This document shows, piece by piece, positions 3,381-58,796 of a stretch of DNA of 64,000 nt. Both the position numbers and the translations under genes were made by a program. The DNA comes from a bacterium (GTDB lineage: Bacteria; UBP6; UBA1177), in the NCBI GenBank assembly GCA_017405875.1, contig JAFQZM010000020.1, positions 9,422 through 73,421 of the forward strand, given 5' to 3'. The first letter of the stretch is position 1. Each line of letters begins with the position of its first letter. Under the pieces are notes generated by a model. The model searched no databases, had not been told where the DNA came from, and saw only the letters and a list, made by a program, of their open reading frames with translations.

Positions 3381-3477
3381 TGCATCCTCCGTTAAAACCG
3401 CGCTATAATACTTAATTTTTTGAAAATTACGACAAAAATGCGGCGGCAAAACCATCGATTTTCAGGATTGGGAAGTT

Positions 3478-3505
3478 GTCTGTCCGGAAATGGTTGACCG
3501 TTATA
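3478..3505. repeat. 27-bp imperfect direct repeat, left copy (CTGtCCGGAAATGgTTGACCGTtATA)
   Basis: Matches 7076-7103 at 24 of 27 positions in the same orientation. Confidence 0.7.
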
Positions 3506-3573
3506 CTTCATTTTTATTTCGATGTCTCGATCAAAAACGGTGCCAGATAAAACGGCAGGAATCTGAGTTCTCC

Positions 3574-4857: not shown

Positions 4858-4899
4858 CAGTTCCTCCACTCAAAAAGCGGCTCAGCATAGCACATCTTT

Positions 4900-4986
4900 G
4901 CATTTCTTCAAAACTTTTTTCATCGAAAAACCGCATTCCTTCAAAACTTTTTCAGTCAAAAGCCTGCATTCCTTCAAAACTTTTGG
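4900..4986. repeat. three 21-bp direct repeats GCATTyCTTCAAAACTTTT with 33-bp phasing
   Basis: Copies lie at 4900-4920, 4933-4953 and 4966-4986, which is 45-130 bp upstream of the ATPase start. They look like an operator or iteron array. Confidence 0.6.
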
Positions 4987-6963: not shown

Positions 6964-7075
6964 TTTACCATCTGTCCAGTTTTCCTTTTTCCACCGCACA
7001 AAACCCTCATTTCAAGATTCATTTTGAAAAATTTTCCGTTTATTTTTCAGAGGTCAAAAAGGTGAAGGCGTTTTA

Positions 7076-7103
7076 ACTGCCCGGAAATGATTGACCGTCA
7101 TAG
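7076..7103. repeat. 27-bp imperfect direct repeat, right copy (CTGcCCGGAAATGaTTGACCGTcATA)
   Basis: Partner of the 3478-3505 copy. It ends 17 nt downstream of the wecB stop codon. Confidence 0.7.
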
Positions 7104-7120
7104 CCAGGAGAGGTCAGATT

Positions 7121-11353: not shown

Positions 11354-11385
11354 CTCTCCCCCTCACTCATCCAGTTTACTTTTCA

Positions 11386-13155: not shown

Positions 13156-13158
13156 CTG

Positions 13159-14331: not shown

Positions 14332-14346
14332 ACGATATCCTCCACT

Positions 14347-17086: not shown

Positions 17087-17097
17087 TCAAAAAATCC

Positions 17098-21022: not shown

Positions 21023-21024
21023 TC

Positions 21025-22257: not shown

Positions 22258-22286
22258 ATTATAACCTCCAAAAGTTTCAAATGACT

Positions 22287-23510: not shown

Positions 23511-23522
23511 TTTATTTATTCC

Positions 23523-33401: not shown

Positions 33402-33410
33402 TCTTATCTC

Positions 33411-34652
33411 CTATTTCACGACTTTTTCAAAAAAAGTATCGGGATGAGCAGGGTCAAAAGTCTCGTTCGCCCACATCAGCGTGACTAAATTCTCGGTTTT
33501 AGAAAGATTTATGATGTTGTGAGTGTAACCCGGAAGCATGTGGACTGCCTGAATCTTTTCTCCGCTCACTTCGAATTCGATCACTTCGTCGGTTCCGATT
33601 CTGCGTTCCTGAATGAGACCGTGACCGCTCACTACGATGAAAAATTCCCACTTCGTGTTGTGCCAGTGTTCCCCTTTCGTGATGCCGGGTCTGCTGATGT
33701 TGACAGAAAACTGTCCGTGGTCGAAAGTCTTCATTATTTCAGTAAAACTTCCTCTGTCATCGCAGTTCATCTTTAGATCAAACGCAACTTTTTCTTTCGG
33801 AAGATAGCTTAGATACATCGAATAGAGCTTTTTCTCGAAACTGTTTGGAGCAATTTCAGGCATAACAAGCGTTTGCGGCTGATCGTGGAACTTGTTCAGG
33901 CACTCAACGATATAGCCCAGAGTTGCTTTGTGAGTAACCGGCGCACCGCAGTATCTGCCAAATTCATTCCAGATCGGAGTAAGCCCGTCGAATTCAACAC
34001 CGTCAACAACTTCTCCCGCTGCCGGATAGTCGCATCTGTGCGGATGACCTTCCATCGCGTCAAGCATTTCATCGATCAGATCATCGATAAAAAGCATCTC
34101 AAGCACGACATTGGGATCATTCACCGTTATCGGAAGATCGTTTGCGATATTGTTGCAGAAAGTTCCGACCGCGCTGTTATAGTTTGGTCTCACCCACTTT
34201 CCGACGAGGTTCGGGAAGCGGTAAACAAAAACTTTTGCACCTGTTTCTTTGGCGTAATCGAAAAAAAGTTCTTCGCCCGCTTTCTTGCTGAGACCGTATT
34301 CCGAAGTGCCGAAACGCCCTGCAAGAGTCGCCTGAAGCGAGCTTGAAAGCATGACGGGAGCAAGGTTACCGTGCTTTTTGAGCGTATCTAACAAAGTCGA
34401 AGCGAATCCGAAATTTCCCTCTCTAAATTCTGCGGGGTCTTTCGGCCTGTTTACACCTGCCAGATTGAAGACAAAATCTGCTTTTTGACACCACTGATCA
34501 AGCTCTGATGCGGTATTCCCGAGGTCGTATTCAAAAATTTCACCTATTGAAAGAGCCGGTCTCGTTCTGTTTTTGCCGTCGCGTATATTTTTGAGATTTT
34601 CGACTAAATTGCGGCCTACGAAACCCGCCGCACCGGTAACAAGCACATTCAT
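33411..34652 (-). CDS. fnlB: bifunctional reductase/epimerase, FnlB/CapF type (N-terminal SDR plus C-terminal cupin)
   Basis: N-terminal VLVTGAAGFVGRNL Rossmann motif. The C-terminal cupin (GEHWHNTKWEFFIVVSGHGLI) matches the unusual CapF architecture. Confidence 0.75.
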   Translation of the reverse strand: MNVLVTGAAGFVGRNLVENLKNIRDGKNRTRPALSIGEIFEYDLGNTASELDQWCQKADFVFNLAGVNRPKDPAEFREGNFGFASTLLDTLKKHGNLAPVMLSSSLQATLAGRFGTSEYGLSKKAGEELFFDYAKETGAKVFVYRFPNLVGKWVRPNYNSAVGTFCNNIANDLPITVNDPNVVLEMLFIDDLIDEMLDAMEGHPHRCDYPAAGEVVDGVEFDGLTPIWNEFGRYCGAPVTHKATLGYIVECLNKFHDQPQTLVMPEIAPNSFEKKLYSMYLSYLPKEKVAFDLKMNCDDRGSFTEIMKTFDHGQFSVNISRPGITKGEHWHNTKWEFFIVVSGHGLIQERRIGTDEVIEFEVSGEKIQAVHMLPGYTHNIINLSKTENLVTLMWANETFDPAHPDTFFEKVVK

Positions 34653-34662
34653 TGAAGCCTCT

Positions 34663-35709
34663 TTAGTTGTGGCGTATCCCCTGAAGTTCCTCTTTTACAT
34701 AGTCGGTGGTCTTTATCTTTTCGACAGTTCCTTCGACATCAAGCCTCGTCGTGTTGTGGCTCGTGTAAGCCTCGTCTGCCATCGTGTGAACTTCACCTTT
34801 GACGAAGAATTTGTCGTAGTTGAGATCCCTGTTGTCGGCTGCGACGCGGAAGTATTTGCCCATGTCTTCCGAGCGGAGCCTTTCCTCTTTTGTCATAAGG
34901 GTTTCGTAAAGTTTTTCGCCGTGTCTTGTTCCGATGATGTTCGTGCCGGTGTCACCGAAAAGTTTCTGCACAGCCTTCGCCAGGTCGCCTATTGTCGAAG
35001 CATCGGCTTTCTGAATGAAAAGATCGCCCGGATTAGCGTGCTCGAAAGCGAATCTGACAAGCTCGACCGCTTCATCAAGATTCATAAGGAAGCGCGTCAT
35101 GTTCGGGTCGGTAATCGTTATCGGATTTCCTGCATGGATCTGGTCGATGAAAAGAGGAATTACCGAGCCGCGCGAACACATTACGTTGCCGTACCTCGTG
35201 CAGCAGATGACTGTTCCGCCGCGTTCCGCCGCAACTCTCGCATTTGCATAGATGACGTGTTCCATCATCGCCTTGCTGATTCCCATAGCGTTTATCGGAT
35301 AAGCCGCCTTGTCTGTGCTGAGGCAGACGACTCTTTTGACACCCGCGTTTATCGCGGCATGAAGCATGTTGTCGGTTCCTTCGACATTGGTTTTTACCGC
35401 CTGCATCGGAAAAAATTCGCAGGAAGGAACCTGTTTCAGCGCAGCTGCGTGGAAAATATAGTCAACACCCGGCATCGCGTCCGCTATCGATTGCGGATCT
35501 CTGACATCTCCGACATAAAATTGAACTTTTTTCGCATGTTCGGGATACTTTGCCTGCAATTCGTGGCGCATATCATCCTGTTTTTTCTCGTCGCGCGAAA
35601 AAATGCGGATCTGTGCAATATCCGAAGTGAGAAAATGTTTGAGAACAGTATTTCCGAAAGAACCGGTGCCGCCCGTTATCATCAAGGTAGCTCCGCTGAA
35701 TGCGCTCAT
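34663..35709 (-). CDS. fnlA: UDP-N-acetylglucosamine 4,6-dehydratase (inverting), FnlA/CapE type
   Basis: LMITGGTGSFGNTVLKHFL and conserved SDR catalytic blocks. The start was set at MSAFSG with GGAGG 6 nt upstream; the track ORF starts 10 codons earlier. Confidence 0.85.
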   Translation of the reverse strand: MSAFSGATLMITGGTGSFGNTVLKHFLTSDIAQIRIFSRDEKKQDDMRHELQAKYPEHAKKVQFYVGDVRDPQSIADAMPGVDYIFHAAALKQVPSCEFFPMQAVKTNVEGTDNMLHAAINAGVKRVVCLSTDKAAYPINAMGISKAMMEHVIYANARVAAERGGTVICCTRYGNVMCSRGSVIPLFIDQIHAGNPITITDPNMTRFLMNLDEAVELVRFAFEHANPGDLFIQKADASTIGDLAKAVQKLFGDTGTNIIGTRHGEKLYETLMTKEERLRSEDMGKYFRVAADNRDLNYDKFFVKGEVHTMADEAYTSHNTTRLDVEGTVEKIKTTDYVKEELQGIRHN

Positions 35710-35733
35710 GCAAAAACCTCCATAAGTTTTACC

Positions 35734-35758
35734 AAACAAAAAAACGGGGCATTATATA
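35734..35758 (-). promoter_or_regulatory. promoter of the polysaccharide locus: TATAAT-GCCCCG-TTTTTTTG (minus-strand sense)
   Basis: Reverse complement of 35734-35758 is TATAATGCCCCGTTTTTTTGTTTG, 42 nt upstream of the fnlA ATG. It belongs to a motif family seen at nine or more sites in this window. Confidence 0.5.
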
Positions 35759-37010: not shown

Positions 37011-39593
37011 ATGAAAAAATTATCCTTTTTTGCGTTGCTGACTCTTTTCAGCATCTCTCTTTTTGCCGAAAAAGTTTACAGAAGCGACGGAACTTTTTTT
37101 GAGATTGAGAGAAACGGTGACGTTTTTGCTTCAAAAATCGATGCAGCTTCGCTCAAAGCACCCGAAAACTACAAGATGAAGTGGCGCTCAAACGACGGAT
37201 TCATAGTTATTGACAAAAAAAATCAGGGAAATCTGCCGGTTTACCTTTCAGGAATGAATTTCGTAATCGCCGATTCAAAACTGTTCTACAAAGGAACAAA
37301 AAGTGTTGAATTTATTGAGAAAAAATACAACATCAAAGCAGTAGAACTTATGAGCGGTTACGATTATATCAAATTTGACGGTGCGACCGACAGCGTCAAA
37401 ATCGCTCAGCAGATTGTTGAAAACGGTGACGGATTCGCGTTTCCCAACCTTTACAGAAGATACGAACTTAAAGCCGTCAATCCCGTCAAGTTCCCGATCA
37501 AGGACAAATACTATACTGAAAACTATCAGTGGTCGCTTAAAAACACGGGAACCGGAATCGGTTACGAAGCAACGGAAGCCGGTTATCAAATCAAGGAAAT
37601 GGACATTCTGAAACACGCTGATGTCAAGTTTGAAGAGGCTATGGAGTTTATCCATGACCAGATCGAAGCCGGTAATCTTGAGAATTTCAACGAAAAAACG
37701 AAAGTTGCCATCATGGACAGCGGTGTCGATTTCGAGCATCCCGACCTCAAAAACAAACTTGAAGACGGCTTCAACATGGTTCATGAAGGCGAAACGGGAA
37801 ATCCCGGCACTTACACTCCCGATCCTGAAGACCCGATGTCGGATGCATCTTACTATTCGCACGGAACAAACTGCGCCGGCGTCGCTGCAGCGGAAGGCAA
37901 CGAGATCGGAACAGTCGGAATATGCCCGTGGTGCGGAATTTATCCCGTTACCTACATGGAAGGCGGAATCGGAACGATGGAATCCGGCGAAAAGCTGATG
38001 GAAGTTTACGAAAAATACACTGAAGATCCTGAAATCGTAGCAATCAACTGCTCTTTCGGTCCGGCGGCAGGTTACGGCAATATTCCGGCATCACAGGATG
38101 AAATCGAAAGCCACAAAAAATTCATGGAAGAAGGAAGAAACGGCAAGGGCGGCGTCATCGTCTACGCAAGCGGTAACGACGGCATCGATGCGGCCTACAC
38201 CGGAATCCTTTCATACGAATTCAAACTGAAACGCGGCGAAAAAAATGTTAAAAGCAGCGTTGTCACGGTCGGCGCAAGCTCTGCGTGGGATACGCGAGTC
38301 ACTTATTCTAACTACGGTGACATGATAGACATAGTTGCTCCGTCGCTTTCGATCAGACCTTTGATAGGCATTGCAACGAGTTTCCTCACAGGCTACGGAG
38401 ACCTTGACGATGACTATACGAACCAGTTCAGCGGAACTTCTTCATCGACTCCGGTCATCACAGGCGCGTTCGGCGTTATTTTCTCGGTAAATCCGGAACT
38501 TACGCTTGAAGAAGCAGTCTATATCCTTCACGAAAGTGCCGACAAAGTTAATCCGGAAACCGGTTTTTACGATAAAGACGGTCACAGCATAAAATTCGGC
38601 TACGGCAGACTCAATCTGCTCAAAGCTGTCAGACTCGCGATGGGTCTCGACATGTGCGAGGAAAGCGCCGACGAAGTAGCCGACAATCTTGACAACAACT
38701 GCGACGGCAGCGTTGACGAAGGTCTGAATAAAGACATTTCCAAAGTCTCGGCAAAGTGCAAAGAGGCAAAAGACTGCGAAACAGCCGACTTCAAAGGTGA
38801 CGATGTCGATTGTCTTACGGGAGAATTCGGCAAGTTCAAATTGAACGACGGTTACTGCATAATCAAAAACAGCAACTTCACATGTCCTGACGGAACGGCA
38901 CAAAACAGTGACTATGACCCTGAATGTCTTCTTGAGTGCAACAATGATCACCCGTGTCCTGAAGGTTTCGGGTGCACTGATGAAATGCTCGGCAAGTGCT
39001 TTCCTGAATGTTCGGAAGATACTGATTGTTCCCAAGGCGCTTACTGCGACAAAACAACAAAACTCTGTCACCTGAATCCGTCAGAACCGATGGGAGCGTG
39101 CGAAACCGGTGAAGACTGCAAATACAACGCAACGATGTGCATGGCCGAAGTACCCGGCGGAATATGCATCATCATGTGCAGTGATGACTACCGCTGCAAT
39201 GATGAGGAAGACAGCCCCAACAAATGTGCAGAAGTTGAGTTCGGGCCATACGGCACCTACAACATCTGTCTTCCGGGCTGCGAAGACGACAGTCAGTGCA
39301 GAAGTTTCGGTTTCGGTCCCGATTACGACATGAAGTGCCACAAACTCTACAACGGCAAAGAAAATATCTGTGGAATGCCGTGCAAAAGAGACGAAGACTG
39401 CCGCGATTATGAGGACGAAACAAAATGCGTAGAATCAAGGTGTGTTCCGCGCAACGAACCCGACGAACCGACGGACAGCGATACCGTTGCCGACGAAGAA
39501 CCTGCTGACGATTCAGATGATGACGACATGACTCTTGACGATGACCAGCCGGCAAAGAAAAAATCAAGCGGCTGTTCAGTGATCACCCTTTAA
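37011..39593 (+). CDS. secreted subtilisin-like serine protease (peptidase S8) with a long C-terminal Cys-rich repeat region and an acidic tail
   Basis: Signal peptide MKKLSFFALLTLFSISLFA. Catalytic triad blocks AIMDSGVD (Asp), HGTNCAGVAAA (His) and GTSSSTPVITG (Ser). The C-terminal ~300 aa hold more than 40 Cys in CxxxxDC-type modules, then a D/E-rich tail. RBS GGAGGAATC. Confidence 0.8.
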   Translation: MKKLSFFALLTLFSISLFAEKVYRSDGTFFEIERNGDVFASKIDAASLKAPENYKMKWRSNDGFIVIDKKNQGNLPVYLSGMNFVIADSKLFYKGTKSVEFIEKKYNIKAVELMSGYDYIKFDGATDSVKIAQQIVENGDGFAFPNLYRRYELKAVNPVKFPIKDKYYTENYQWSLKNTGTGIGYEATEAGYQIKEMDILKHADVKFEEAMEFIHDQIEAGNLENFNEKTKVAIMDSGVDFEHPDLKNKLEDGFNMVHEGETGNPGTYTPDPEDPMSDASYYSHGTNCAGVAAAEGNEIGTVGICPWCGIYPVTYMEGGIGTMESGEKLMEVYEKYTEDPEIVAINCSFGPAAGYGNIPASQDEIESHKKFMEEGRNGKGGVIVYASGNDGIDAAYTGILSYEFKLKRGEKNVKSSVVTVGASSAWDTRVTYSNYGDMIDIVAPSLSIRPLIGIATSFLTGYGDLDDDYTNQFSGTSSSTPVITGAFGVIFSVNPELTLEEAVYILHESADKVNPETGFYDKDGHSIKFGYGRLNLLKAVRLAMGLDMCEESADEVADNLDNNCDGSVDEGLNKDISKVSAKCKEAKDCETADFKGDDVDCLTGEFGKFKLNDGYCIIKNSNFTCPDGTAQNSDYDPECLLECNNDHPCPEGFGCTDEMLGKCFPECSEDTDCSQGAYCDKTTKLCHLNPSEPMGACETGEDCKYNATMCMAEVPGGICIIMCSDDYRCNDEEDSPNKCAEVEFGPYGTYNICLPGCEDDSQCRSFGFGPDYDMKCHKLYNGKENICGMPCKRDEDCRDYEDETKCVESRCVPRNEPDEPTDSDTVADEEPADDSDDDDMTLDDDQPAKKKSSGCSVITL

Positions 39594-39596
39594 AAT

Positions 39597-40739
39597 CTAA
39601 GAAAAAACCAGAAGATCAGGTTTGATTATCAGAATAAGACCGAGCGTGAGCATGAGAAGTCCGCTCACGAGTTTGAGCTTTTTCGCGTGTTTTTCTTCGA
39701 ATCTGTGCTTACCCATCGTGACAACGAACATAAGCACGATTATTGCAAGCGGAACAACGTAATAAACATTGTAAAGCGCCATGAAGAGATATTTTTTGAG
39801 GGTCGAGACATTCTGGATCGAAAGGACTCTCGTGTAGATTGCGGGAAGCCCGATCGTACAGCCGAGCTCAATCAGATTTACGAAAAACGCAAGTGCAATA
39901 GTTCCGAGAATCGACAAAAACATATTTTTGTTGTTGATGACACGCCTCATTTTCTCAAAAAGTTTCGGTTTGACTTTATCGGGAATCATCAGGCTCACAC
40001 CTTTTTTGAAGAAGAAAAACTCCTTCATGTTGATAAGTCCCATAATGATTGCAACAACACCGAGCGCGATCGTGACATAAGTCGTCATTCCCATAAACGT
40101 GAAAATATTGAGCCACGCCGTCATGAAAAGGAAATAAACAACGCCTGAAGAAATAACGAAAACCGAGCCTATCATTATAACTTTTTTCCTGTCTTTCGCA
40201 GCGACAAGAAGGGTGAGAAGGAACATCAGAACCCACATTGCACACGGGTTTACGCCGTCCAGAAGACCGATTATGAAGGTAAAACTCGGAAGTTTGACAA
40301 GCTGCGCGTCGATTTTCCCGAGAACCGGAACGTCAATCACGTTTTCCTTGCACTCCTGACACTGCTCACCGCACGATTCTCCGTCAGCCTTGTTCATTTC
40401 TATCATTTCACGGATAAGCGCGTCGTGGTGACCCGACTGGAAACCGACGATGAATTTTCCGTTGAAAATGAATGTCGGAACTCCGCCGCCCTGAATACCG
40501 AGCTTTTGCGTCATTTCTCTGAAAAGTTTCATATTTTCAGGAACTTGCAGAACTTCCAGCTTTTTAAAAGTTATATCGGGATATTCATGCTCAATAGCTG
40601 CGATGAACGGCTGCGCCTCGTGGCAGTGCGAACACTTATACGAATAAAAAAAGTAAAAAATATTGTCTTTCTGCACTTCTTCTGCAGAAACGGCAAATGA
40701 AACAAGCGCAAGAAGGAGCAGCAGGAAAAATTTTTTCAT
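39597..40739 (-). CDS. thioredoxin-like domain (CSHC) fused to a DsbD/CcdA-like transmembrane disulfide-transfer domain
   Basis: Signal peptide, then a Trx fold with CSHC. The C-terminal polytopic domain carries GVNPCAMWVL, like CcdA/DsbD-beta. The start was set at MKKFF. Confidence 0.65.
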   Translation of the reverse strand: MKKFFLLLLLALVSFAVSAEEVQKDNIFYFFYSYKCSHCHEAQPFIAAIEHEYPDITFKKLEVLQVPENMKLFREMTQKLGIQGGGVPTFIFNGKFIVGFQSGHHDALIREMIEMNKADGESCGEQCQECKENVIDVPVLGKIDAQLVKLPSFTFIIGLLDGVNPCAMWVLMFLLTLLVAAKDRKKVIMIGSVFVISSGVVYFLFMTAWLNIFTFMGMTTYVTIALGVVAIIMGLINMKEFFFFKKGVSLMIPDKVKPKLFEKMRRVINNKNMFLSILGTIALAFFVNLIELGCTIGLPAIYTRVLSIQNVSTLKKYLFMALYNVYYVVPLAIIVLMFVVTMGKHRFEEKHAKKLKLVSGLLMLTLGLILIIKPDLLVFS

Positions 40740-40756
40740 AAAAACCCCCAAAGTTA

Positions 40757-40781
40757 CGAACAAAAAAATCCGGCAATCATA
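40757..40781 (-). promoter_or_regulatory. promoter motif TATGAT-TGCCGGA-TTTTTTTG (minus sense) upstream of the DsbD-like gene
   Basis: Reverse complement reads GGCTATGATTGCCGGATTTTTTTGTTCG, 37 nt upstream of the ATG at 40739. Confidence 0.4.
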
Positions 40782-40817: not shown

Positions 40818-41195
40818 TTATTTCCGCGGCTCCTTTTTGACGGGACGCCCGATCATCGCACGGATTTTTTCTTCATAGACCCCTTTTTTAAATCCGACGA
40901 CATACTGGTCTCTGAAAACAAAAGTCGGGACACCGCCGCCCTTGATTCCCAGTTTTTCAACTTTTTTATTGAAAATCGCCATATTTTCAGGCGCTTTGGA
41001 AAGTTCAAGTTTCTTAAATTCAATATTCGGAAACTCTTTTTCCAATTCCTCTATAAAAGGCATTGCTTCGTGACAGTGCGGACACGACTCGGAATAGAAA
41101 AAATAAAATCTTTCGCTTTTCTGCGGAGTCTCTCCGGCAGAGAGCATCAACGAAATCATTGCCGAAACAAGTAAAATAAAAATTTTCTTCATAGC
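40818..41195 (-). CDS. secreted thioredoxin-like protein (CPHC), paralog of the N-terminal domain of the adjacent DsbD-like protein
   Basis: FYFFYSESCPHCHEAMPFIE...GGGVPTFVF aligns with FYFFYSYKCSHCHEAQPFIA...GGGVPTFIF of the neighbouring gene. Signal peptide present. The start was set at MKKIF (ATG 41195; AAGGTG upstream). Confidence 0.65.
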   Translation of the reverse strand, partial: AMKKIFILLVSAMISLMLSAGETPQKSERFYFFYSESCPHCHEAMPFIEELEKEFPNIEFKKLELSKAPENMAIFNKKVEKLGIKGGGVPTFVFRDQYVVGFKKGVYEEKIRAMIGRPVKKEPRK

Positions 41196-41214
41196 ACTTT
41201 TCACCTTCACAAAT

Positions 41215-46692: not shown

Positions 46693-48090
46693 TTATTCAT
46701 TGCTTGAACAAGAGTCTGAGAAAAGAGCCAGCTCTTTGTCGCATTTTTCCATATCTTCTTCAGGTTCATCGCATTCCTGTGAATATCCGCTGTAGAAAAT
46801 GTATATGTCATCGCCTTCAGGAGTGCAGCGGTAAATGTCGAAATCTCCGTTTGCGCAATACATGTAATAACTGCACTCTGCAGGAATTGCTTCTTCCTCT
46901 TCCTCTTCTTCTTCGGAAGTCGTATCACCGCAGTATTCGTAATATTCCTCGTAGCATGACTGCATATTTTCTTCGTTGCACTCGAATTTCCTGTCTCCTA
47001 CCTGATAGTAGAAGTTTCCGTCACCTTTTGTCGAAGCGCAGGCTTTGGATGTTTCGCCGGTTTTTTCGCATACACCCTCTTCTTCGCAGTAGAATCCGTC
47101 TTCGTATTCGCCGTCAAGTGCTTCGCAGTACTGTTCCATTTTGAAAAAACAGTCTTCGTGATTTTCCGATTCGCATTTGAATTCTTTATCACCGACTTTT
47201 ATCGAGTAGATGTTGGAATATGAGCCGTTGAAATCACCGTAAAGGCAGTAAACGAGCATCTCGCCTGTTTTCTGGCAGTAGATCGATTCGTTTTCTTTGT
47301 CATCGTAGTCGGCATCTTCTTTGTCACCATAGATAGTATCCCACTCTTTTATGGTCTTGCAGGTAACTTCGCCGGTTTTGCCGCCGCCGTTGTTGTTGTT
47401 GGAATTTTCTTCTGTTACTTCGTCAACAACAATGAAAGTGTAGTCGGAGAAGTGACCGGTCGTCATCATGATAGGATCGCCTGCAGCAGCGTTCATAATA
47501 GGATCGCCCGCAGCATTCGTCATGATAGGATCACCTGCCGAAGCAAGCATGATGGGATCACCGGCAGCAGCATTCATGATAGGATCGCCCGCAGCGGTCG
47601 TCACATTTCCGTTGCTGATCATAATGGGATCGCCTGCAGCAGTCGTCATGATGGGATCGCCTGCTTCGTCATATCCGCCGAACAGTGCATAAGCTCCTTT
47701 TTCGCTGTAGCTCCATGTTCCGTCGCCTTTCATAACGGCAGCCGCAACAGTTTTGCCTTTTACAGCCTTTCCGGCATTGATCGTGATGACAACGGGTTTT
47801 TTGAATTTTGTACCTGAAGGACCGAATTCAACGATATTGGAAGCAAGAGCTTTTTTGTTTTTGAATCCGTCTGTTGTGTAAAGTGTTACCGAAATTTCGG
47901 TGTCTTTGTCGAGTGCTCCGGCAGGAATTTTTATCTTTGCTTCGCCGCCGGCAACTTCGATTTCTCCGCCTTCCGAAGCGGTAATTGTCTGTGATTTTTC
48001 TTCAACAACTTTCTTGCTTTCGCCGGATCCGCCGCAACTTACTGCAAAAAAGAGCGCTGCACAAATCGTCAAAACCAAAATTTTTTTCAT
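46693..48090 (-). CDS. lipoprotein with seven GDPIM-containing 9-aa tandem repeats and a C-terminal acidic Cys-rich region
   Basis: Signal peptide plus lipobox FFAVSCGGSG. The central repeats are (A)AGDPIMxxA. The C-terminal part has an E8 run and repeated Y..VGD+.F.C.EN...C modules. Confidence 0.6.
   Translation of the reverse strand: MKKILVLTICAALFFAVSCGGSGESKKVVEEKSQTITASEGGEIEVAGGEAKIKIPAGALDKDTEISVTLYTTDGFKNKKALASNIVEFGPSGTKFKKPVVITINAGKAVKGKTVAAAVMKGDGTWSYSEKGAYALFGGYDEAGDPIMTTAAGDPIMISNGNVTTAAGDPIMNAAAGDPIMLASAGDPIMTNAAGDPIMNAAAGDPIMMTTGHFSDYTFIVVDEVTEENSNNNNGGGKTGEVTCKTIKEWDTIYGDKEDADYDDKENESIYCQKTGEMLVYCLYGDFNGSYSNIYSIKVGDKEFKCESENHEDCFFKMEQYCEALDGEYEDGFYCEEEGVCEKTGETSKACASTKGDGNFYYQVGDRKFECNEENMQSCYEEYYEYCGDTTSEEEEEEEEAIPAECSYYMYCANGDFDIYRCTPEGDDIYIFYSGYSQECDEPEEDMEKCDKELALFSDSCSSNE
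47467..47673. repeat. in-frame 27-bp tandem coding repeats (7 units, one with an 18-nt insertion)
   Basis: The units CATGATAGGATCGCCTGCAGCAGCGTT and variants encode the GDPIM repeats of the 46693..48090 gene. Confidence 0.8.
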
Positions 48091-49329: not shown

Positions 49330-50904
49330 TTGAAAAAATTATTGATTGCAGCTTCGGTTTTGGCTCTCTGCATCAGCATGATCGTTTCATGCGGCGAAAA
49401 AAAAGAACCCGAAGCAAAAGAGAAAGTTAAACTTTCTTTCCACGTTATGAGTAAGTGTCCTTACGGTGTTCAGGTTATGAACGCAATCAAACCGACACTC
49501 GACAAACTCGGAAACGCAGTTGATTTCGAACTCAACTACATCGGTTACGAAAAGGACGGCGGCTGGATGCCTATGCACGGAGCAACCGAGCGTCAGGGCG
49601 ACAAAATCTTCCTCTGCGCTAAAAAACACATGCCGAAAGACTACATGAATCTTATCGTCTGCATGAACAAAGAATCGAGAAAGATTCCCGAAAATTTTGA
49701 AAGCTGCGCTAAAGAACTCAACCTCGACATCGCTAAAGTCAATGCGTGCAAAGACGGCGACGAAGGTGAGAACATTCTTCTTGAAAGCTACAAATTTTCG
49801 AAATCGAAAGGCGCAAACGGTTCGCCCACGATTTTCCTTGCTGATCAGCCCTACAGAGGCGGAAGAACTTCCAACGATTTCCTGAGAGCGATCTGCAACG
49901 AATACAAAACCGCGAAACCGGAAGTCTGCAGCTCGATTCCTGAACCTGCAAAAGTAAAAGTTACCGTCATTTCCGACAAAAGATGCAAAGACTGCAGACC
50001 AGAAGCTTTGATCGGCCAGCTTAAAAACATGTTCCCCGGACTTATTCCGGAAACCATCGACTACTCCGATGAAAAAGCTCAGGAACAGTACAAAAAGTTT
50101 GCAGAAGCAGGCTTCAAAACCCTTCCTATCATAGCTTTTGAAGAATCAGTCGAAAAAGAGGAAGAATACCAGAAAATCGCACGTTGGGCTGTAAAAGCAG
50201 GAGGAGCAATCCTTCTTCGAGTCGGCGCAAAATTCGACCCGACCAAAGAGATCTGCGACAACGGAATGGATGATACCGGCAACGGCAAAGTTGACTGTGC
50301 CGATGACGACTGCAAAGAAGAAATGCTCTGCAGAAAAGAGATCCCGGGAAGAATCGACCTTTTCGTTATGAGCCAGTGCCCCTACGGTGTTATGGCGCTC
50401 AACGCAATGAAAGAAGTTTTCGAAGCTTTCAAAGACGACAAACTTGACTTCCACGTAAACTACATCGCAAACGAGACCGAACCCGGCAAATTCAATGCTC
50501 TTCACGGCCAGGGCGAAGTTGACGAGAACATCCGTGAACTCTGCGCGATCAAGCACTATCCGAAAGATTACATGAACTACATCTGGTGCCGCAACGAGAA
50601 CATCAGAGGAACCGACTGGCAGAAATGCGCAACCGGCAAAATCAAAGCTGATGTCATCGAAAAATGCTTCAACGGCGGCGAAGGTGTAAAACTTCACAGC
50701 GAAAACATCAAAATCGGAAACAAAATGGGAATCGGCGGCAGCCCGACATGGATTTTCAACAACAAATTCCAGGGCGGCGGCGTTGCTGCAAACGACATCC
50801 AGAGACAGATCTGCGCTCACAACAAAGATCTTAAAGGCTGTGCAGCTGACAAAGCTATCAAAGCCGGCGACAAACCTGCTCCTCAGGGCGGCTGCGGCGA
50901 ATAA
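49330..50904 (+). CDS. lipoprotein with two tandem DsbA-like thioredoxin-fold domains carrying monothiol CPYG motifs
   Basis: TTG start with RBS AAGGAGGA 5 nt upstream. Signal peptide plus lipobox IVSCGE. There is an internal duplication (HVMSKCPYGVQVMNAIKP...GANGSPTIFLADQPYRGG and FVMSQCPYGVMALNAMKE...GIGGSPTWIFNNKFQGGG). The GxxG[ST]PT block resembles the DsbA cis-Pro loop. A Cys-rich linker DCADDDCKEEMLC joins the domains. Confidence 0.6.
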   Translation: MKKLLIAASVLALCISMIVSCGEKKEPEAKEKVKLSFHVMSKCPYGVQVMNAIKPTLDKLGNAVDFELNYIGYEKDGGWMPMHGATERQGDKIFLCAKKHMPKDYMNLIVCMNKESRKIPENFESCAKELNLDIAKVNACKDGDEGENILLESYKFSKSKGANGSPTIFLADQPYRGGRTSNDFLRAICNEYKTAKPEVCSSIPEPAKVKVTVISDKRCKDCRPEALIGQLKNMFPGLIPETIDYSDEKAQEQYKKFAEAGFKTLPIIAFEESVEKEEEYQKIARWAVKAGGAILLRVGAKFDPTKEICDNGMDDTGNGKVDCADDDCKEEMLCRKEIPGRIDLFVMSQCPYGVMALNAMKEVFEAFKDDKLDFHVNYIANETEPGKFNALHGQGEVDENIRELCAIKHYPKDYMNYIWCRNENIRGTDWQKCATGKIKADVIEKCFNGGEGVKLHSENIKIGNKMGIGGSPTWIFNNKFQGGGVAANDIQRQICAHNKDLKGCAADKAIKAGDKPAPQGGCGE

Positions 50905-53797: not shown

Positions 53798-53954
53798 TAA
53801 AACTCCAAGAACATTGAAAAAACCTGCAATATTACGATTGAAAGGCAAAATGTCAATTTTTGGGCAATGGCGCATATTTTACTTTCAATATGATTAATTA
53901 GTGATAATATATGGAGCTTGTTTGAGTTTTTTAGCATTTTGCGGGAGAGTTGAC

Positions 53955-56033
53955 ATGGTTGATGACTACAAAATCGGGATACGAAAAAATCATCGGAATG
54001 TTATTATTCTCTGTATCGCTTCCGTTCTGATAAACGTCGTCTTTGCGCGTCTGGCACAGTTCTTATCGCAGAATTTCGGCATGCAGCTCTGGTTCGACAC
54101 TATCGGAACCGTTCTCGCAGCAGCAATGGGCGGCTACCTTCCGGGCATTTTTGTCGGTCTTGTCACAAATTTCATGAAAGGTTTCATGGATTTTGCCTCT
54201 ATATACTACTCCGCGATGAATGTCCTTATCGCCGCGACTTCAGCCCTTCTGGCAAACCACGGATTTTTAACGAAAAAGTGGAAAATCCCGTTTTTCATAC
54301 TTGTCATGGCTTTCATCGGCGGTGTTCTCGGCGGTATCCTTCCAAGCATCGTCAACTCCATTCCGACTGCCGGTTTTCTGAACGATCTGCTGTGGGATCT
54401 TGTGGATAAGACCATTTCAGTACTCTTAGTCGTCGCAATCGTCAGGGCGATCCCGCCTGCGACCAGAGAAACGCTTCGTTTCAACGGCTGGAAACAGGCG
54501 CCGCTTACGAAAAGCGATCTGGAGGAGATCAAAAAGACGATCCAGTGCCGTTCCGTTTTTTTAAGATCAAAAATCATTTTCATTCTGGCAGCAGCGCTTG
54601 TCACCCTGGCCGTAACAGCGTCAACGATCAGCTTTGTACTCTACAGGAACGCGCTTATCACTGAATATTCCGAATTCGCCCGCGAGGTGACCATTGCAAT
54701 CTCAGAGGTTTTGGATCACGAAAAGATCGACGAATACATCTCAAGCAAAGGTGCTGACCCGGAATATCTCGAAGTCATGCACAAACTTGAAGATATAAAG
54801 ACTACCGCTCCGACTGTAAAATTCATCTACATCTACAAAATAGAAGAGGACGGCGGACACGTGGTTTTCGACCTTCATTCCAACAATGAGGAAGATTCCG
54901 TTCCCGGCAAACTTGTAAAATTCGACTCCGCTTTCGAGCCTTATCTTCCTACACTTCTGGAAGGAGGCGAGATAGAACCGGTCATTTCCGACAGCGACTT
55001 TGGGCGGCTCCTTTCGGTTTACACTCCCGTCAAAAATTCTGCCGGAAAAACTGTAAGCTACATCGGGGCGGACATCCCAATGTCAATGATAGTCGGAAAA
55101 GAGCTGAACTTCCTGACTCAGATGGTATTCCTCTTCCTGGGTTTCGTGATCCTTATCATTGCGATCGTTGTCTGGTTTGTCGATTTCAACGTCGTTTTCC
55201 CGATCAACTCAATGACGATGCGGACAAGCGAGTTCGCCTACAGCGGCAGCAACGCGCTCGGCGAAAACGTCGAGAAGATCAAACGTCTTGACATCCACAC
55301 CGGAGACGAGGTCGAAAACCTGTATAAGGCTTTCACCAAGATGACCGAAGACACAATGGGTTATGTCGATAAGATCGTCAGTTCGGCTGAGAAGATCGCA
55401 CAGATAAACAGCACTTTCGGAAAGGTCGTTTCGCCTCAGGTCAGGGATTTCCTGCTTTCCGATAACCCCGACCTCGGCGGTCAGGATATCGATGTCACCG
55501 TAATGTTCTGCGATATACGCGGTTTTACCACCATATCAGAAAGACTCGAACCAAAAGAAATAGTTTCGATGCTGAACCGCTATTTCACCCGTCTCGAGAA
55601 ACCGATCGTCGAAAACGGCGGAATCATAAACAAGTATATCGGCGACGCTATAATGGCTGTTTTCGGAGTTCCGTTGCAGTCGGAAACCCATGCCTACGAT
55701 GCATGGAAAGCCGCACAGGGAATGAGAGCGCAGCTTGCAGCTCTCAACGAGGAGCTGAAAAACGAAGGACGGCAGGAAATCCGCTTCGGAATAGGTTTAT
55801 GTTCCGGTAAAGTTCTTGCCGGAAATATCGGAACTGCGAACCGGCTTGAATACACCGTTATCGGCGACACCGTAAACACTGCAAGCCGCATCGAGAGCCT
55901 TTGCAAAACTTACAAAACAGATCTGCTTATTTCCGAGCAGACGAAAGAACTTCTTCCTGACGACGTATCGCTTACATTCATCGCAGAATCAGAGATCCGC
56001 GGAAAAGAGAAAAAAATCAAACTTTATTCTTAA
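53955..56033 (+). CDS. membrane-bound class III adenylate/guanylate cyclase with an N-terminal polytopic sensor domain
   Basis: The C-terminal cyclase domain carries VTVMFCDIRGFTTISE...KYIGDAIMAVFG...GIGLCSGKVLAGNIG...YTVIGDTVNTASRIE. N-terminal TM helices and an extracytoplasmic segment precede it. The start was set at MVDDYK with GGGAGAG upstream; the track start is a GTG 18 codons earlier. Confidence 0.75.
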   Translation: MVDDYKIGIRKNHRNVIILCIASVLINVVFARLAQFLSQNFGMQLWFDTIGTVLAAAMGGYLPGIFVGLVTNFMKGFMDFASIYYSAMNVLIAATSALLANHGFLTKKWKIPFFILVMAFIGGVLGGILPSIVNSIPTAGFLNDLLWDLVDKTISVLLVVAIVRAIPPATRETLRFNGWKQAPLTKSDLEEIKKTIQCRSVFLRSKIIFILAAALVTLAVTASTISFVLYRNALITEYSEFAREVTIAISEVLDHEKIDEYISSKGADPEYLEVMHKLEDIKTTAPTVKFIYIYKIEEDGGHVVFDLHSNNEEDSVPGKLVKFDSAFEPYLPTLLEGGEIEPVISDSDFGRLLSVYTPVKNSAGKTVSYIGADIPMSMIVGKELNFLTQMVFLFLGFVILIIAIVVWFVDFNVVFPINSMTMRTSEFAYSGSNALGENVEKIKRLDIHTGDEVENLYKAFTKMTEDTMGYVDKIVSSAEKIAQINSTFGKVVSPQVRDFLLSDNPDLGGQDIDVTVMFCDIRGFTTISERLEPKEIVSMLNRYFTRLEKPIVENGGIINKYIGDAIMAVFGVPLQSETHAYDAWKAAQGMRAQLAALNEELKNEGRQEIRFGIGLCSGKVLAGNIGTANRLEYTVIGDTVNTASRIESLCKTYKTDLLISEQTKELLPDDVSLTFIAESEIRGKEKKIKLYS

Positions 56034-56061: not shown

Positions 56062-56901
56062 TTAAAAGATTTTTTCAGGATTTTCGCAGAAACAGTTTGC
56101 AAGACATTCAGTGATGAAGTAGCGTGATTCACCGCAACTGAATACCGAAGCTTCATCTTCAGGATAACAGCCGCATTCGTTCGGAATTTCATCTGAATCG
56201 GCGTCTTCGTCGGGAAGTTCCGTATCGTTATCGGTCTCATCAGAGTCATCATCTTCACCGACCGACGGGTCAGCATCGTCACCCTCGCCTTCTGTCAAAT
56301 CTCTGGTGATTCCGGCTTCGTCGCAAAGCCCTGGTTCTGAAACTGAACAGATTTTGCCGCCTGAATTGATGGCGTAGCAGTTTACGAAACACGGGTTGAA
56401 GACCAATATTTTGCCGTCGCAGCATACCGGGAAATAGTCCGGAGTACTGCCGCATCCGCATTCAACATTCGTAAATCCTTCAGGGAACGGATCACTTTCA
56501 GGGAATATGTAGACAGGCGCGTCTTCATCAGGAAAATCGTCAGGATTTGCCGGATCATTCATATCCGGTTCAGAATCGGTATCAATATCTGTATCGGTAT
56601 CGGTTGGATCAATACTATCCGCATAATCTTCATCCGGATAAGGAGCGTTCTGTTCATCATTTTCTTCATACTTATCCTGCCCGCCCTCATCGTAATAGTC
56701 ACTGTCGGCATTGTCTTCGTTCCAATCGTCGTAGTTTCCGGCACTTGCCGTGTCCGCATTATCGCCTTCGTAAATCTCGTCCGGAAGCCCTTCTGTATTG
56801 TCTTCACCGTCGGAGGATTTATCGCCCAGATTTACGAACTGACTGCAAGAAACAACGAACAAAACAACTGAAACGACTAAGAAAAATCTACTTTTCATCA
56901 A
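56062..56901 (-). CDS. acidic lipoprotein with two Kazal-like protease-inhibitor modules
   Basis: Signal peptide plus lipobox LFVVSCSQ and long D/E-rich spacers. Two Cys modules, ECGCGSTPDYFPVCCDGKILVFNPCFVNCYAINSGGKIC and ECGCYPEDEASVFSCGESRYFITECLANCFC, match the Kazal PVCG.DGKTY.N.C..C spacing. Confidence 0.55.
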   Translation of the reverse strand: MMKSRFFLVVSVVLFVVSCSQFVNLGDKSSDGEDNTEGLPDEIYEGDNADTASAGNYDDWNEDNADSDYYDEGGQDKYEENDEQNAPYPDEDYADSIDPTDTDTDIDTDSEPDMNDPANPDDFPDEDAPVYIFPESDPFPEGFTNVECGCGSTPDYFPVCCDGKILVFNPCFVNCYAINSGGKICSVSEPGLCDEAGITRDLTEGEGDDADPSVGEDDDSDETDNDTELPDEDADSDEIPNECGCYPEDEASVFSCGESRYFITECLANCFCENPEKIF

Positions 56902-58111
56902 TTATCCTCTTGATTTCCCTGCTGCGGAAACTTCTCGGATATTCTCTGAGGTAATCATGGCAGAGCGGAAGATCTCTGCTTTCCGATTTTTTCTGCGACA
57001 GGCAGCCTTTTATCATGATTTCTTCTTTATATACGCGGCTTTCGCGCATAACTCTGTCATATTTTTTAACCAGATTTGCAATTTCCGCATAATCTTTTTT
57101 AGCTTCGTTTATCGAAATAAGTTCGAACAACGCCTTGTCGGGTTCATGGCCTTTCTCGATCTCCATCGTGAAAAGCTGCTGCGCCGCTCCGGTTTTTCCC
57201 GCTGAGAGGGCTTCTCTTCCCTGAAACAGGAAAGATTTGCCCGGAGTCAGCGCAAAGTCTTGTTTTTTAGGATTGTTTTTCGTCTTTTTTCCAGGGGTCG
57301 TTATGGCAATTTGTTGTTCTTTCTGATGGTCTTTATATTCAAAAGTCTTATTCATGTCTTTGGAAAGCTGCGTTGCCGCGCCGTTTGCCTTCTCAACAAT
57401 TTCAACGAGACCGCTGAAAACTTCAGCCGTAAGTTTTCCGTCTGAATAGTCGAGCGTGAAAGATGTTCCGAGAACTCTGACTAAAAATTTTCCGTCGACA
57501 TCGATCCTGAAATCGTTGCCTGTGACGACGTCGAACTTCGCCTTTCCTTTTTTCATCGAAACGTCTGTATCGGTGATATTTTCAAGATAAGTGTTCGAAA
57601 TTACTGAAATCGTTGCCTTTGCGAGCTGAACTTTCGCACCGCTTTCCCTTTCGCCGGATGCGTAATCTTCTTTCGTTTCAATGACAGCTTCTGTCGCACC
57701 TGCTGTTGCGATTTCGACAGTTTTTTCTGTGTTTTCAGCCGGTTTCCCGCTATTAAAAAGTGCAACTGCAATTACTACTGCAACTGCAAGCGAAAGTGCG
57801 AGCGCCGGTTTGAACCATGAAGCAAAAAGCGCGGAAAAACTGAAGCCTTTTTCTTTTTCTGGCTCGGTTTCTTCTTCAAAAGGCAGCATTGCAAACGATT
57901 TTGCCGCGATTTCGGTAACTTTCGCTTCATCAACAGCTGGAACGAATTCCTTTGACTCGGCGAAAATCTCTTTCGCGCCGCAGCAGCAGCTTATCATTGA
58001 AGAGCAGTCAGTGCATTCGGCAACGTGCTTTTCCGTTTCGGGAAGCAGCACGTATCTGCCGTCTGCGAGAGCTATCGCTTCTTCGATCGTTATGTGTTTC
58101 TCGGATACCAT
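56888..58111 (-). CDS. anti-sigma factor (zf-HC2 N-terminus, TM helix, FecR-like periplasmic domain, C-terminal TPR)
   Basis: HVAECTDC zinc-finger motif, a single TM helix (ALALSLAVAVVIAVALF) and a FecR-like block (FRIDVDGKFLVRVLGTSFTLDY). It is downstream of the ECF sigma gene and overlaps the Kazal-like gene by 14 nt. Confidence 0.7.
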   Translation of the reverse strand: MVSEKHITIEEAIALADGRYVLLPETEKHVAECTDCSSMISCCCGAKEIFAESKEFVPAVDEAKVTEIAAKSFAMLPFEEETEPEKEKGFSFSALFASWFKPALALSLAVAVVIAVALFNSGKPAENTEKTVEIATAGATEAVIETKEDYASGERESGAKVQLAKATISVISNTYLENITDTDVSMKKGKAKFDVVTGNDFRIDVDGKFLVRVLGTSFTLDYSDGKLTAEVFSGLVEIVEKANGAATQLSKDMNKTFEYKDHQKEQQIAITTPGKKTKNNPKKQDFALTPGKSFLFQGREALSAGKTGAAQQLFTMEIEKGHEPDKALFELISINEAKKDYAEIANLVKKYDRVMRESRVYKEEIMIKGCLSQKKSESRDLPLCHDYLREYPRSFRSREIKRIIDEK

Positions 58112-58119
58112 AAAACCTC

Positions 58120-58695
58120 TTACATACTAAGACTCAATATTTCATAAAGCTCCTTTTTCGCCTGATTTATCCTCGACCAGACTGTCTGGAGCGGCTGTTT
58201 CAATATCTCGGAGATCTCTTTCAGCGGAACTCCTTCGACCTCGTAAAGAGTTAAAGCAAAGCGTTTTTCAGGCGATAATTTTTTCATCGCACTGTTCACC
58301 ATCTGTGCTTTTTCCTGCTTTATCATCGAAGCCTCGCTGCCGGACGATTTGTCTCCGATCTGGAGAAAAAACTCAGGTTCTTCCGCAGTTTCGATCCGGT
58401 TCATATTCTTCTGGATGTATTTGTAGGTCGTATTTACCGCTATACGATAAAGGAAAGTCGAAAAAAGCGAATCGCGCTTGTAAATTTTTATCGCTTTCGC
58501 CATTTCGGTAAAAACTTCCTGCACAACATCCTCCGCTTCGGCACTTTTGCCGATGATTCTGTAAACCGTGGCGGCAACTTTTCCGTAGTAGCGCGTTATA
58601 AGCGCCGTCCACGCCTTCTGGTTTTTTTCACGCAGTGCAAGGTCGACAAGAATGTTGTCATCAAGATTTGCCAATATCCTGTCTTCCTTCACCAC
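58120..58695 (-). CDS. ECF-family RNA polymerase sigma factor
   Basis: A sigma-70 region 2 (DVVQEVFTEMAKAI...FSTFLYRIAVNTTY) and region 4 (LKEISEILKQPLQTVWSRINQAKKEL). GTG start with GAGGA upstream. Confidence 0.8.
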   Translation of the reverse strand: MVKEDRILANLDDNILVDLALREKNQKAWTALITRYYGKVAATVYRIIGKSAEAEDVVQEVFTEMAKAIKIYKRDSLFSTFLYRIAVNTTYKYIQKNMNRIETAEEPEFFLQIGDKSSGSEASMIKQEKAQMVNSAMKKLSPEKRFALTLYEVEGVPLKEISEILKQPLQTVWSRINQAKKELYEILSLSM

Positions 58696-58796
58696 AGCAA
58701 AATCCTCGTATTTAGTTCCATTTCTGCCCGTTTTTTATTGAAAAAAAATGAAAAAAATTCAAAAAAAACGAGATTTCCCAAAAAATATCAATAAAA

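Follow-up and report, generated by a model that had tools for sequence, protein, structure and literature searches.

We analyzed a 64-kb stretch of bacterial DNA (contig JAFQZM010000020.1; hereafter, the window) and focused on three genes on its minus strand. They encode an extracytoplasmic function (ECF) sigma factor, an anti-sigma factor, and an acidic, Cys-rich lipoprotein, one part of which is a divergent Kazal homologue by profile comparison. A motif upstream of the sigma gene recurs, in other uncultured bacteria, upstream of genes for serpin lipoproteins. Our favored reading is that the ECF cassette and the serpins make up an autoregulated regulon of tethered serine-protease inhibitors that possibly senses proteolytic attack. 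We hold it tentatively, at somewhat less than an even chance, from sequence comparison and from analogy to known systems.

Three genes form a self-contained ECF cassette

An open reading frame (ORF) check placed three tightly packed ORFs at 56062..58695 on the minus strand. The features of the operon are as follows.

58711..58741, minus strand: candidate ECF promoter, a conserved bipartite motif (TCAATAAA-N17-ACTAAA) upstream of the sigma gene
58120..58695, minus strand: ECF (group 4) sigma-70 family sigma factor, 191 aa, GTG start
56888..58111, minus strand: single-pass anti-sigma factor, 407 aa, with a cytoplasmic zinc-binding anti-sigma (ZAS)-like domain, a transmembrane (TM) helix, a periplasmic FecR domain, and a C-terminal helical region, all predicted
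58004..58027, minus strand: ZAS motif H29-x3-C33-x2-C36, read from the sequence
57755..57823, minus strand: predicted TM helix, about residues 97 to 119 (WFKPALALSLAVAVVIAVALF), the sole hydrophobic span and kept in all orthologues
57401..57640, minus strand: FecR domain, residues 158 to 237 (PF04773, E=6e-9, 36.7 bits against a cutoff of 24)
56891..57259, minus strand: C-terminal helical region, residues 285 to 407, possibly TPR-like (weak matches)
56062..56898, minus strand: acidic lipoprotein, 278 aa from ATG, with an alternative TTG at 56901
56845..56898, minus strand: signal peptide and lipobox LFVVSC (MKSRFFLVVSVVLFVVS-C), with Cys18 invariant in 20 of 20 aligned sequences
56707..56844, minus strand: short conserved motifs C-x2-FVNLGD, DNTEGLPDE, and NYDDWNED in an acidic, otherwise disordered N-region
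56461..56505, minus strand: conserved motif FPESDPFPEGFSN leading into module 1
56323..56460, minus strand: module 1, residues 147 to 192, an 8-Cys divergent Kazal-like module of the CxC...CxxxC type
56065..56175, minus strand: module 2, residues 242 to 278, apparently a 6-Cys truncated copy of module 1 without its C-terminal strand and the Cys in it

A first-pass annotation had described three co-directional, overlapping genes. They do share a strand, and the anti-sigma and lipoprotein genes overlap, but the sigma and anti-sigma genes are separated by an 8-nt spacer, which contains GAGG. The overlap, given earlier as 14 nt, has that length if translation begins at the TTG (56901). With the ATG at 56898 as the start, it shrinks to 11 nt; this ATG is preceded by an AGAGGA ribosome-binding site and is the start in all orthologues. 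Scans for generic sigma-70 promoters and terminators gave nothing informative inside the operon. The sigma, anti-sigma, and lipoprotein genes are one tightly packed unit, a self-contained ECF signaling cassette.

The product of 58120..58695 is an ECF (group 4) sigma factor, as first annotated. It is small, has regions 2 and 4 only (Sigma70_r2, E=8e-15; Sigma70_r4_2, E=4.5e-11; region 3 was not matched), and passes the ECF superfamily model TIGR02937 (sigma70-ECF) with 91.2 bits against a cutoff of 42.9. The anti-sigma factor had been annotated as a zf-HC2/FecR/TPR protein. The FecR domain and an N-terminal HxxxCxxC motif were found, but Pfam zf-HC2 did not match the protein and TPR support was weak. 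The HxxxCxxC motif is kept in the L001-L011 orthologues (HVAECKEC, HVKNCPEC, HIAGCREC, and HLAQCPEC), and there was a weak match to Mycobacterium tuberculosis RslA (3hug_B, E=0.99). In the C-terminal region, weak helical-repeat matches (TPR_16, E=0.12; PilW, E=0.021; PPR, E=0.07) make a TPR assignment plausible, not established. Together, the HxxxCxxC motif, the one predicted TM helix, and an apparently extracytoplasmic FecR domain identify a ZAS/FecR-type anti-sigma factor. In a divergent cassette, the L012 orthologue (6923..8002, plus strand) is shorter, at 359 aa, and lacks the N-terminal HxxxCxxC. The third gene's product is, by its signal peptide ending in the lipobox VVSC, a bacterial lipoprotein.

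The cassette is conserved as a block

We scanned for the lipoprotein in one genome per GTDB species. It was present in 12 species, all of them ruminant-gut or other uncultured metagenome-assembled genomes (MAGs); one record is titled UBP6_UBA1177, and two are labeled Spirochaetales. Sigma and anti-sigma genes precede the lipoprotein gene in all 12, and in every locus an anti-sigma orthologue lies directly downstream of the sigma gene, at a distance of 8 nt. The triad spans about 50 protein clusters, all from uncultured bacteria.

Within the window's clade, neighboring genes for an ABC1 kinase, a radical-SAM enzyme, an adenylate cyclase, and TrkA have products that are 87 to 98% identical, and the cassette proteins are 79 to 97% (sigma), 75 to 91% (anti-sigma), and only 46 to 89% (lipoprotein) identical. 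Distant cassettes have other flanking genes, with the triad intact and overlaps of 8 to 17 nt. There, identity falls to 46 to 55% for sigma, 27 to 41% for anti-sigma, and 28 to 36% for the lipoprotein. Because the triad is kept despite changed flanking genes, the three genes are a functional unit. These alignments and gene orders show a cassette conserved as a block in a deep uncultured lineage from rumen and other anaerobic metagenomes.

Two neighborhoods were of separate interest. Convergent with the operon in the window is the gene (53901..56033, plus strand) for a membrane adenylate/guanylate cyclase of 710 aa, the large N-terminal part of which is multi-pass and extracytoplasmic. The stop codons are 28 nt apart, and this position is kept in the window's clade and not in distant cassettes. 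In the P0048 organism (L022, 10746..12310, plus strand), the gene for the Kazal-like lipoprotein has a 159-aa ORF and a radical-SAM/SPASM gene immediately downstream.

The lipoprotein is a small, constrained family with two Cys modules

The initial description of an acidic lipoprotein with two Cys modules held. The mature chain has 79 acidic and 7 basic residues, and both modules were found. In an alignment of 20 homologues, the columns of the N-region motifs are invariant or nearly so (mean identity, 65%, versus 34% in the acidic linker that follows), and a second acidic linker separates the modules. Module 1 has the arrangement C147-x-C149-x9-C159-C160-x9-C170-x3-C174-x9-C184-x7-C192, and all 8 Cys are invariant. 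Module 2 has C242-x-C244-x10-C255-x9-C265-x3-C269-x-C271, in which the CxC is C-G-C. Counting both modules, the 14 Cys are invariant or nearly so. A six-frame scan of the whole window with the pattern C-x-C-x6-12-C-x8-12-C-x2-4-C found both modules and only three other matches, which were unrelated and attributable to chance.

A search of 5.8 billion proteins returned 39 clusters of this family, all unnamed proteins from uncultured "bacterium" MAGs and none with a Pfam domain. The family is small, since an exhaustive profile search of 1.84 billion representatives yielded just 15 proteins at E<=1e-3. Its dN/dS is about 0.15 (<=0.2), a value for which synonymous sites are saturated (dS of about 1) and only relative dN is informative. 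This suggests a real gene under purifying selection. The dN of the modules, 0.17 to 0.19, is about three times that of the sigma factor or the ABC1 kinase (0.066).

The most divergent members have a module 2 with a CC doublet and an extra C-terminal Cys, always both together. Joint gain or loss of this pair is a disulfide signature, and its presence in divergent members suggests that the ancestral module 2 was an 8-Cys copy of module 1. Kazal domains pair their Cys 1-5, 2-4, and 3-6; here, the indirect indication of disulfides comes from this Cys pair of module 2.

Module 1 is related to Kazal domains

Pfam and NCBIfam searches with the lipoprotein returned nothing relevant, and no Pfam family matched the whole protein at E<=1. 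Profile comparison was more informative. A module 1 profile searched against all PDB sequences gave 12 weak matches, 11 of them to Kazal-bearing chains. The best was 1y1c, the non-classical Anemonia elastase inhibitor (E=0.004), and others included SPI-1, rhodniin, and the Kazal-like loop of OATP transporters. The profile also matched nine stretches of the protein P0049 (E=1e-9), which has an M12B reprolysin metalloprotease domain, ten Pfam Kazal_1/Kazal_2 domains, and SprB repeats. The P0049 repeats (C-x-C-x7-C-x10-C-x3-C-x9-C) are of the CxC...CxxxC type, like module 1, and hhalign of module 1 against the ten Kazal repeats gave 93.6% probability (E=2e-7).

The modules were also modeled with AlphaFold2 (AF2), and the predictions agreed with the Kazal fold that was first proposed. 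Module 1 was predicted to be a hairpin (E22-26 and E29-33), a helix (H35-44), and a strand (E53-55), with a pLDDT of 72, and module 2 a hairpin and a short helix, with a pLDDT of 79. A Foldseek search of PDB with the module 1 model gave no significant match; OMTKY3 ranked 2 to 4, at E>4.

Canonical Kazal domains have the spacing C2-x7-C3-x6-Y-x3-C4-x2,3-C5 (a PROSITE-type pattern). In module 1, C3-x10-C4 and C4-x3-C5 fit this, but C2-C3 is x9 and Val166, with Phe167 next to it, occupies the place of the Tyr. Module 1 has much in common with the Anemonia sulcata elastase inhibitor (1Y1B/1Y1C; MEROPS I1, non-classical) and the P0049 repeats, which are its best sequence and profile matches: the order C-x-C...PVC...C-x3-C with C3-x10-C4 and C4-x3-C5, a Y-x-P-V-C motif, and the predicted hairpin-helix-strand fold. 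It differs from them in its two extra Cys (8 in total), a C2-C3 loop of 9 residues rather than 7, Pro at the P1-equivalent position, V-F in place of the Tyr of G-x-x-Y, and a score below the threshold of the Pfam Kazal models. The lipoprotein as a whole differs in its lipid anchor, its long acidic disordered linkers, and a module 2 without the last strand and its Cys.

Module 2 aligned in register with module 1 (38% probability, E=3e-4), and compared with Kazal domains directly it gave 12% and no alignment. We conclude that module 2 is probably a truncated copy of module 1, with a Kazal-likeness that comes from its predicted fold. Module 1 is, by profile evidence, a divergent Kazal homologue that falls outside strict Kazal membership in Pfam score and spacing. 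The original assignment of both modules to the Kazal type was therefore upheld as homology for module 1 and as predicted fold for module 2, but not as strict membership, given the Pfam result, the loop length, and the Pro at P1.

For the module 2 profile, EETI-II-derived knottins were the top PDB sequence matches (E of about 0.2), with no Kazal domain among the matches, and we judged these matches to be chance. The core of module 2, CLANCFC, resembles the core CLAGCVC of those knottins, and the C-x3-C-x-C-x6-C spacing of the 8-Cys module 2 variants recalls squash inhibitors; both likenesses are probably coincidental. P0049 and P0052 represent two further Kazal-like architectures in bacteria; P0052 (locus L021, 6001..7008), an acidic lipoprotein of 335 aa, has five CxC...CxxxC repeats, which go unrecognized by Pfam.

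The reactive-site loop of Kazal inhibitors is hypervariable, as is typical of inhibitor contact loops. The most variable positions of module 1 include 151, 152, 154, and 156, which lie in the C149-C159 loop. This loop would be the counterpart of the reactive-site loop, and its variability is as expected for an inhibitor facing diverse targets. The lipoprotein is probably a membrane-tethered, Kazal-like serine-protease inhibitor and the cotranscribed output of the cassette.

Several observations count against that assignment. Pfam Kazal_1 and Kazal_2 (PF00050/PF07648) did not match the isolated modules or four homologues even at E<=10. The C2-C3 loop of module 1 exceeds the canonical 7 residues by two. 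In the hhalign register, the P1 equivalent is Pro153, conserved in 17 of 20 sequences, which would be a poor P1 for S1 or S8 proteases and so argues against canonical inhibition. Module 2 lacks C6, with the C-terminal third of a Kazal domain missing. Finally, many Kazal-like domains (in follistatin, agrin, and OATP) are not inhibitors.

A promoter-like motif links the sigma factor to serpin genes

Six divergent cassettes have [CAT]AATAA-N18-ACT[AT]AA upstream of the sigma gene (fuller form, TCAATAAA-N17-ACTAAA), with a spacing that is invariant although the sigma factors are only 46 to 55% identical. The motif is found exactly once, upstream of sigma, in all 15 loci that contain that region. 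The window has a single exact match, at 58711..58741, against 0.11 expected. The only other exact motif in 299 kb is a perfect 14/14 copy in L019/L022. It lies 29 nt upstream of a gene for a 423-aa serpin lipoprotein and 3.3 kb from the sigma operon of L022. By chance, 0.43 matches with at most one mismatch are expected in 299 kb.

We also trained a weight matrix solely on the 15 sigma-upstream sites and scanned 350 kb on both strands (~300 genes), including serpin homologue loci fetched from other uncultured bacteria. The top four matches outside the training set were in L028 (23.9 bits), L027 (21.8 bits), L026 (16.9 bits), and L030 (16.3 bits), each 37 to 52 nt upstream of the first serpin gene of its locus. 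Further serpin-upstream scores were 13.8 in L022 and 10.9 in L024. Serpin-upstream sequence makes up ~0.1% of the scanned total. L030 belongs to the window's clade, with three proteins 93 to 95% identical to the products of window genes at 32235..35739. In this clade the element upstream of serpin genes, TCAGAAAAATCGA-N9-G[GT]AACTAAA, resembles the one upstream of sigma genes, TCAATAAAAA[AT]CGG-N9-G[GCT]AACTAAATA. Like the Kazal-like protein, the serpins are lipoproteins (lipobox FVSC or VVSC) with acidic, Asp/Thr/Pro-rich linkers, and they carry an inhibitory-type hinge, E-x-G-T-E-A-A-A-V-T.

We infer from this conservation that the motif is the sigma factor's own, autoregulated promoter. The regulon would then consist of the operon and unlinked serpin genes, that is, of tethered serine-protease inhibitors. 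An anti-protease function under sigma control had been suggested from the operon itself, and the motif upstream of serpin lipoprotein genes in four lineages lends this idea independent support.

Alternatively, the motif might be a general promoter or an AT-rich element of exported-protein genes rather than an ECF promoter, and the link to serpins would then be uninformative. It is AT-rich and unlike the classical ECF consensus GGAAC...CGTC, and the serpin and radical-SAM copies in L022 share a spacer and may be a local duplication. However, over ~350 kb and some 300 genes, high scores occurred only upstream of sigma and serpin genes, other lipoprotein genes (such as that for the GILT protein) lack the motif, and boxes and spacing are kept across lineages while the spacers diverge. 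We judged a general promoter improbable, given the absence of the motif from about 300 other genes in the scanned loci.

Two further observations concern the motif. In L022 of the P0048 organism (3664..4935 and 2466..3596, both minus strand), a degenerate third copy precedes a radical-SAM gene that lies a short way downstream of the serpin gene, and the spacer sequence of this copy is shared with the serpin copy. In L012, L013, L017, and L019, an ATG follows ACT[AT]AA after only about 5 nt, so the sigma transcripts of these loci may be nearly leaderless.

A possible response to proteolytic attack

The steps of a mechanism can be proposed by analogy with sigmaE/RseA/RseB, FecR processing, and sigmaV/RsiV. 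The sigma factor would be kept at the membrane by the anti-sigma factor until proteases attack the envelope or the anti-sigma factor's own periplasmic FecR/helical domain. Regulated intramembrane proteolysis would follow and set the sigma factor free. The released sigma factor would raise the levels of the Kazal-like lipoprotein and the serpins. These tethered inhibitors would quench the protease and restore anti-sigma stability, a negative feedback. The anti-sigma and lipoprotein genes are translationally coupled, which suggests that synthesis of the lipoprotein keeps pace with that of the sensor; the lipoprotein may also shield the sensor.

A more specific version, which we consider rather unlikely, is a protease-load sensor. 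Here, foreign or self-secreted serine proteases would themselves act as the site-1 protease on the anti-sigma factor, and the lipoprotein would be a titratable guard. Saturation of the guard would free the sigma factor, which would induce more guard and the serpin lipoproteins. If this version is true, no earlier ECF system has been shown to sense proteolytic attack, and the lipoproteins would be the first family of Kazal-type inhibitors with a function described in bacteria.

Some features of the window and of the argument also weigh against a protease-responsive inhibitor regulon. The window has no second copy of the motif, further matches in it being at chance level and inside genes or on the wrong strand, and there is no serpin gene within the 64 kb. 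The promoter assignment comes from motif conservation, and the inducing signal is supposed purely by analogy. The case for this uncultured organism is one of sequences and models. Protease access to the sensor may depend on the envelope type of the lineage.

The main rival to the inhibitor regulon is that the lipoprotein is a non-inhibitory signaling partner of the anti-sigma factor and that the serpins are the real effectors. Through its Kazal-like modules and short acidic motifs, the lipoprotein would bind a ligand or the periplasmic FecR/helical-repeat domain and so modulate sigma release like RseB/MucB or Streptomyces CseA. Translational coupling with the anti-sigma gene is strict in every cassette, linear motifs (FVNLGD, DNTEGLPDE, NYDDWNED, and FPESDPFPEGFSN) are conserved within disordered acidic sequence, and the conserved Pro at the P1 equivalent and the over-long loop favor such a partner, as do the many known Kazal-like domains that are non-inhibitory. 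However, module 1 varies most in the loop that corresponds to the reactive-site loop, which would suit an inhibitor, and the other inferred regulon members, the serpins, are inhibitors. We regard a signaling partner as unlikely but a serious contender.

A different possibility is that the Cys clusters and poly-acidic stretches bind metals or cations without forming disulfides and that the cassette senses or buffers metal or cation stress. The 79 acidic residues, the 14 module Cys, and a FecR domain, classically tied to iron signaling, would suit such a role, and periplasmic disulfide formation is not to be taken for granted in an anaerobe. However, no TonB-dependent transducer or metal transporter adjoins any cassette, the profile and predicted fold indicate a disulfide-stabilized Kazal scaffold, the extra Cys pair of module 2 appears and disappears jointly, as for a disulfide, and the window encodes exported thioredoxin-fold, GILT, and CcdA-like proteins. 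We consider metal binding highly improbable.

The secreted S8 protease is an improbable dedicated partner

The first-pass annotation had also paired the lipoprotein with a subtilisin-like protease with a Cys-rich tail, encoded in the same window. The protease is real (36921/37011..39593, plus strand; PF00082, E=2.5e-34) and has a signal peptide, so the lipoprotein might be a dedicated inhibitor of the cell's own secreted S8 subtilase. However, the S8 gene is 16.5 kb from the operon, on the opposite strand, with more than ten unrelated genes between them (encoding thioredoxins, an MIP channel, TrkAH, and adenylate cyclase, among others). No sigma-type motif was found upstream of it in exact, 1-2 mismatch, or matrix scans, and distant cassettes keep the triad without an S8 gene in their 6- to 10-kb flanks. 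These findings speak against a regulated pair, which we consider very unlikely. The subtilase could be one of many targets of the lipoprotein.

The tail of the protease (residues ~600 to 890) has ~290 aa of Cys-rich repeats and then an acidic stretch ending in KKKSSGCSVITL. In NCBIfam, the subtilase had only weak similarity to dentilisin PrtP and mycosin.

Comparison with known systems

Among known systems, sigmaE-RseA-RseB of Escherichia coli and AlgU-MucA-MucB also pair an ECF sigma factor with a single-pass anti-sigma factor and have a third, periplasmic protein made from the same transcript. That protein (RseB or MucB) protects the anti-sigma factor from the site-1 serine protease. Pfam and NCBIfam gave no RseB/MucB match for the lipoprotein, the structured parts of which are Kazal-like. 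Its sequence and predicted fold have no relation to RseB/MucB. The anti-sigma factor also differs, being of the ZAS/FecR type and not RseA, and the lipoprotein resembles a true protease inhibitor rather than a shield that senses lipids or lipopolysaccharide.

The sigmaV-RsiV system of Bacillus, Enterococcus, and Clostridioides difficile, also of the ECF type, senses a hydrolytic threat to the envelope and switches on resistance against it. There, the threat is lysozyme, which RsiV binds directly; here, a protease threat is suggested by the nature of the regulon, and the proteins are unrelated. FecI-FecR-FecA likewise has an ECF sigma factor and an anti-sigma factor (sigma regulator) with a periplasmic FecR domain. 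The cassette differs in its N-terminal ZAS motif, its extra C-terminal helical domain, its lipoprotein partner, and the lack of an adjacent TonB-dependent transducer; none was found in the 6- to 10-kb flanks of any cassette or near the operon in the window.

Bifidobacterium breve has a protease-inducible serpin operon controlled by a two-component system, with a proposed role in protection from environmental proteases (PMC8012564). It is similar in that a gut bacterium regulates a serine-protease inhibitor in response to proteases. It differs in using a two-component system rather than an ECF/anti-sigma pair, in having no Kazal-like component, and in belonging to a Gram-positive actinobacterium. 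Two envelope-associated inhibitors with a proposed role in protection from endogenous and exogenous serine proteases are also comparable: ecotin, in the E. coli periplasm (PMC9904509), and miropin, a Tannerella forsythia serpin (PMC8201313). Their folds (the ecotin fold and the serpin fold, respectively) are different. To our knowledge, no dedicated ECF sigma factor has been reported to control either.

No relevant paper came up in a literature search that combined Kazal with anti-sigma. The individual parts (ECF sigma factor, ZAS/FecR anti-sigma factor, Kazal-like domain, and serpin) are of known kinds. Their combination, a previously unrecognized bacterial family of Kazal-like lipoproteins fixed in an ECF operon, and an apparent inhibitor regulon appear to have no described counterpart in the literature searched.

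Of the switches with which bacteria respond to envelope stress, ECF sigma/anti-sigma pairs form the largest class, and for most groups the signal and output are not known. The output proposed here is unusually coherent, consisting of lipid-anchored serine-protease inhibitors from two unrelated families (Kazal-like and serpins). Such an output suggests that the signal is proteolysis. If confirmed, this would be a new input/output logic for ECF signaling, in which domains regarded as essentially eukaryotic inhibitors serve bacterial envelope defense, and it would give a first functional handle on an uncultured rumen lineage from a protease-rich habitat. Being small and rich in disulfides, the modules might also find use as new inhibitor scaffolds.

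Other features of the window

The window also encodes a set of exported thiol-disulfide proteins. They are a thioredoxin (CSHC) fused to a CcdA/DsbD-like membrane domain (39597..40763, minus strand), a secreted 130-aa thioredoxin (CPHC) (40818..41210, minus strand), and a lipoprotein that combines two GILT domains with an "acidic double-disulfide repeat" (NF033662) (49330..50904, plus strand). Such proteins suggest envelope disulfide chemistry in this anaerobe, which bears on the nearby Cys-rich exported proteins.

ZU5 is an autoproteolytic domain that is uncommon in bacteria, and a 465-aa protein encoded at 46693..48090 (minus strand) has one (E=8e-9). A large surface-polysaccharide gene cluster includes genes for a Wzx-like flippase, a Wzy/O-antigen ligase, a heparinase II/III-like protein, and glycosyltransferases. 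Inside it, the stretch at ~10000..24000 has a low GC content (34 to 37%, versus about 45% elsewhere) and may be a horizontally exchanged, serotype-type island.

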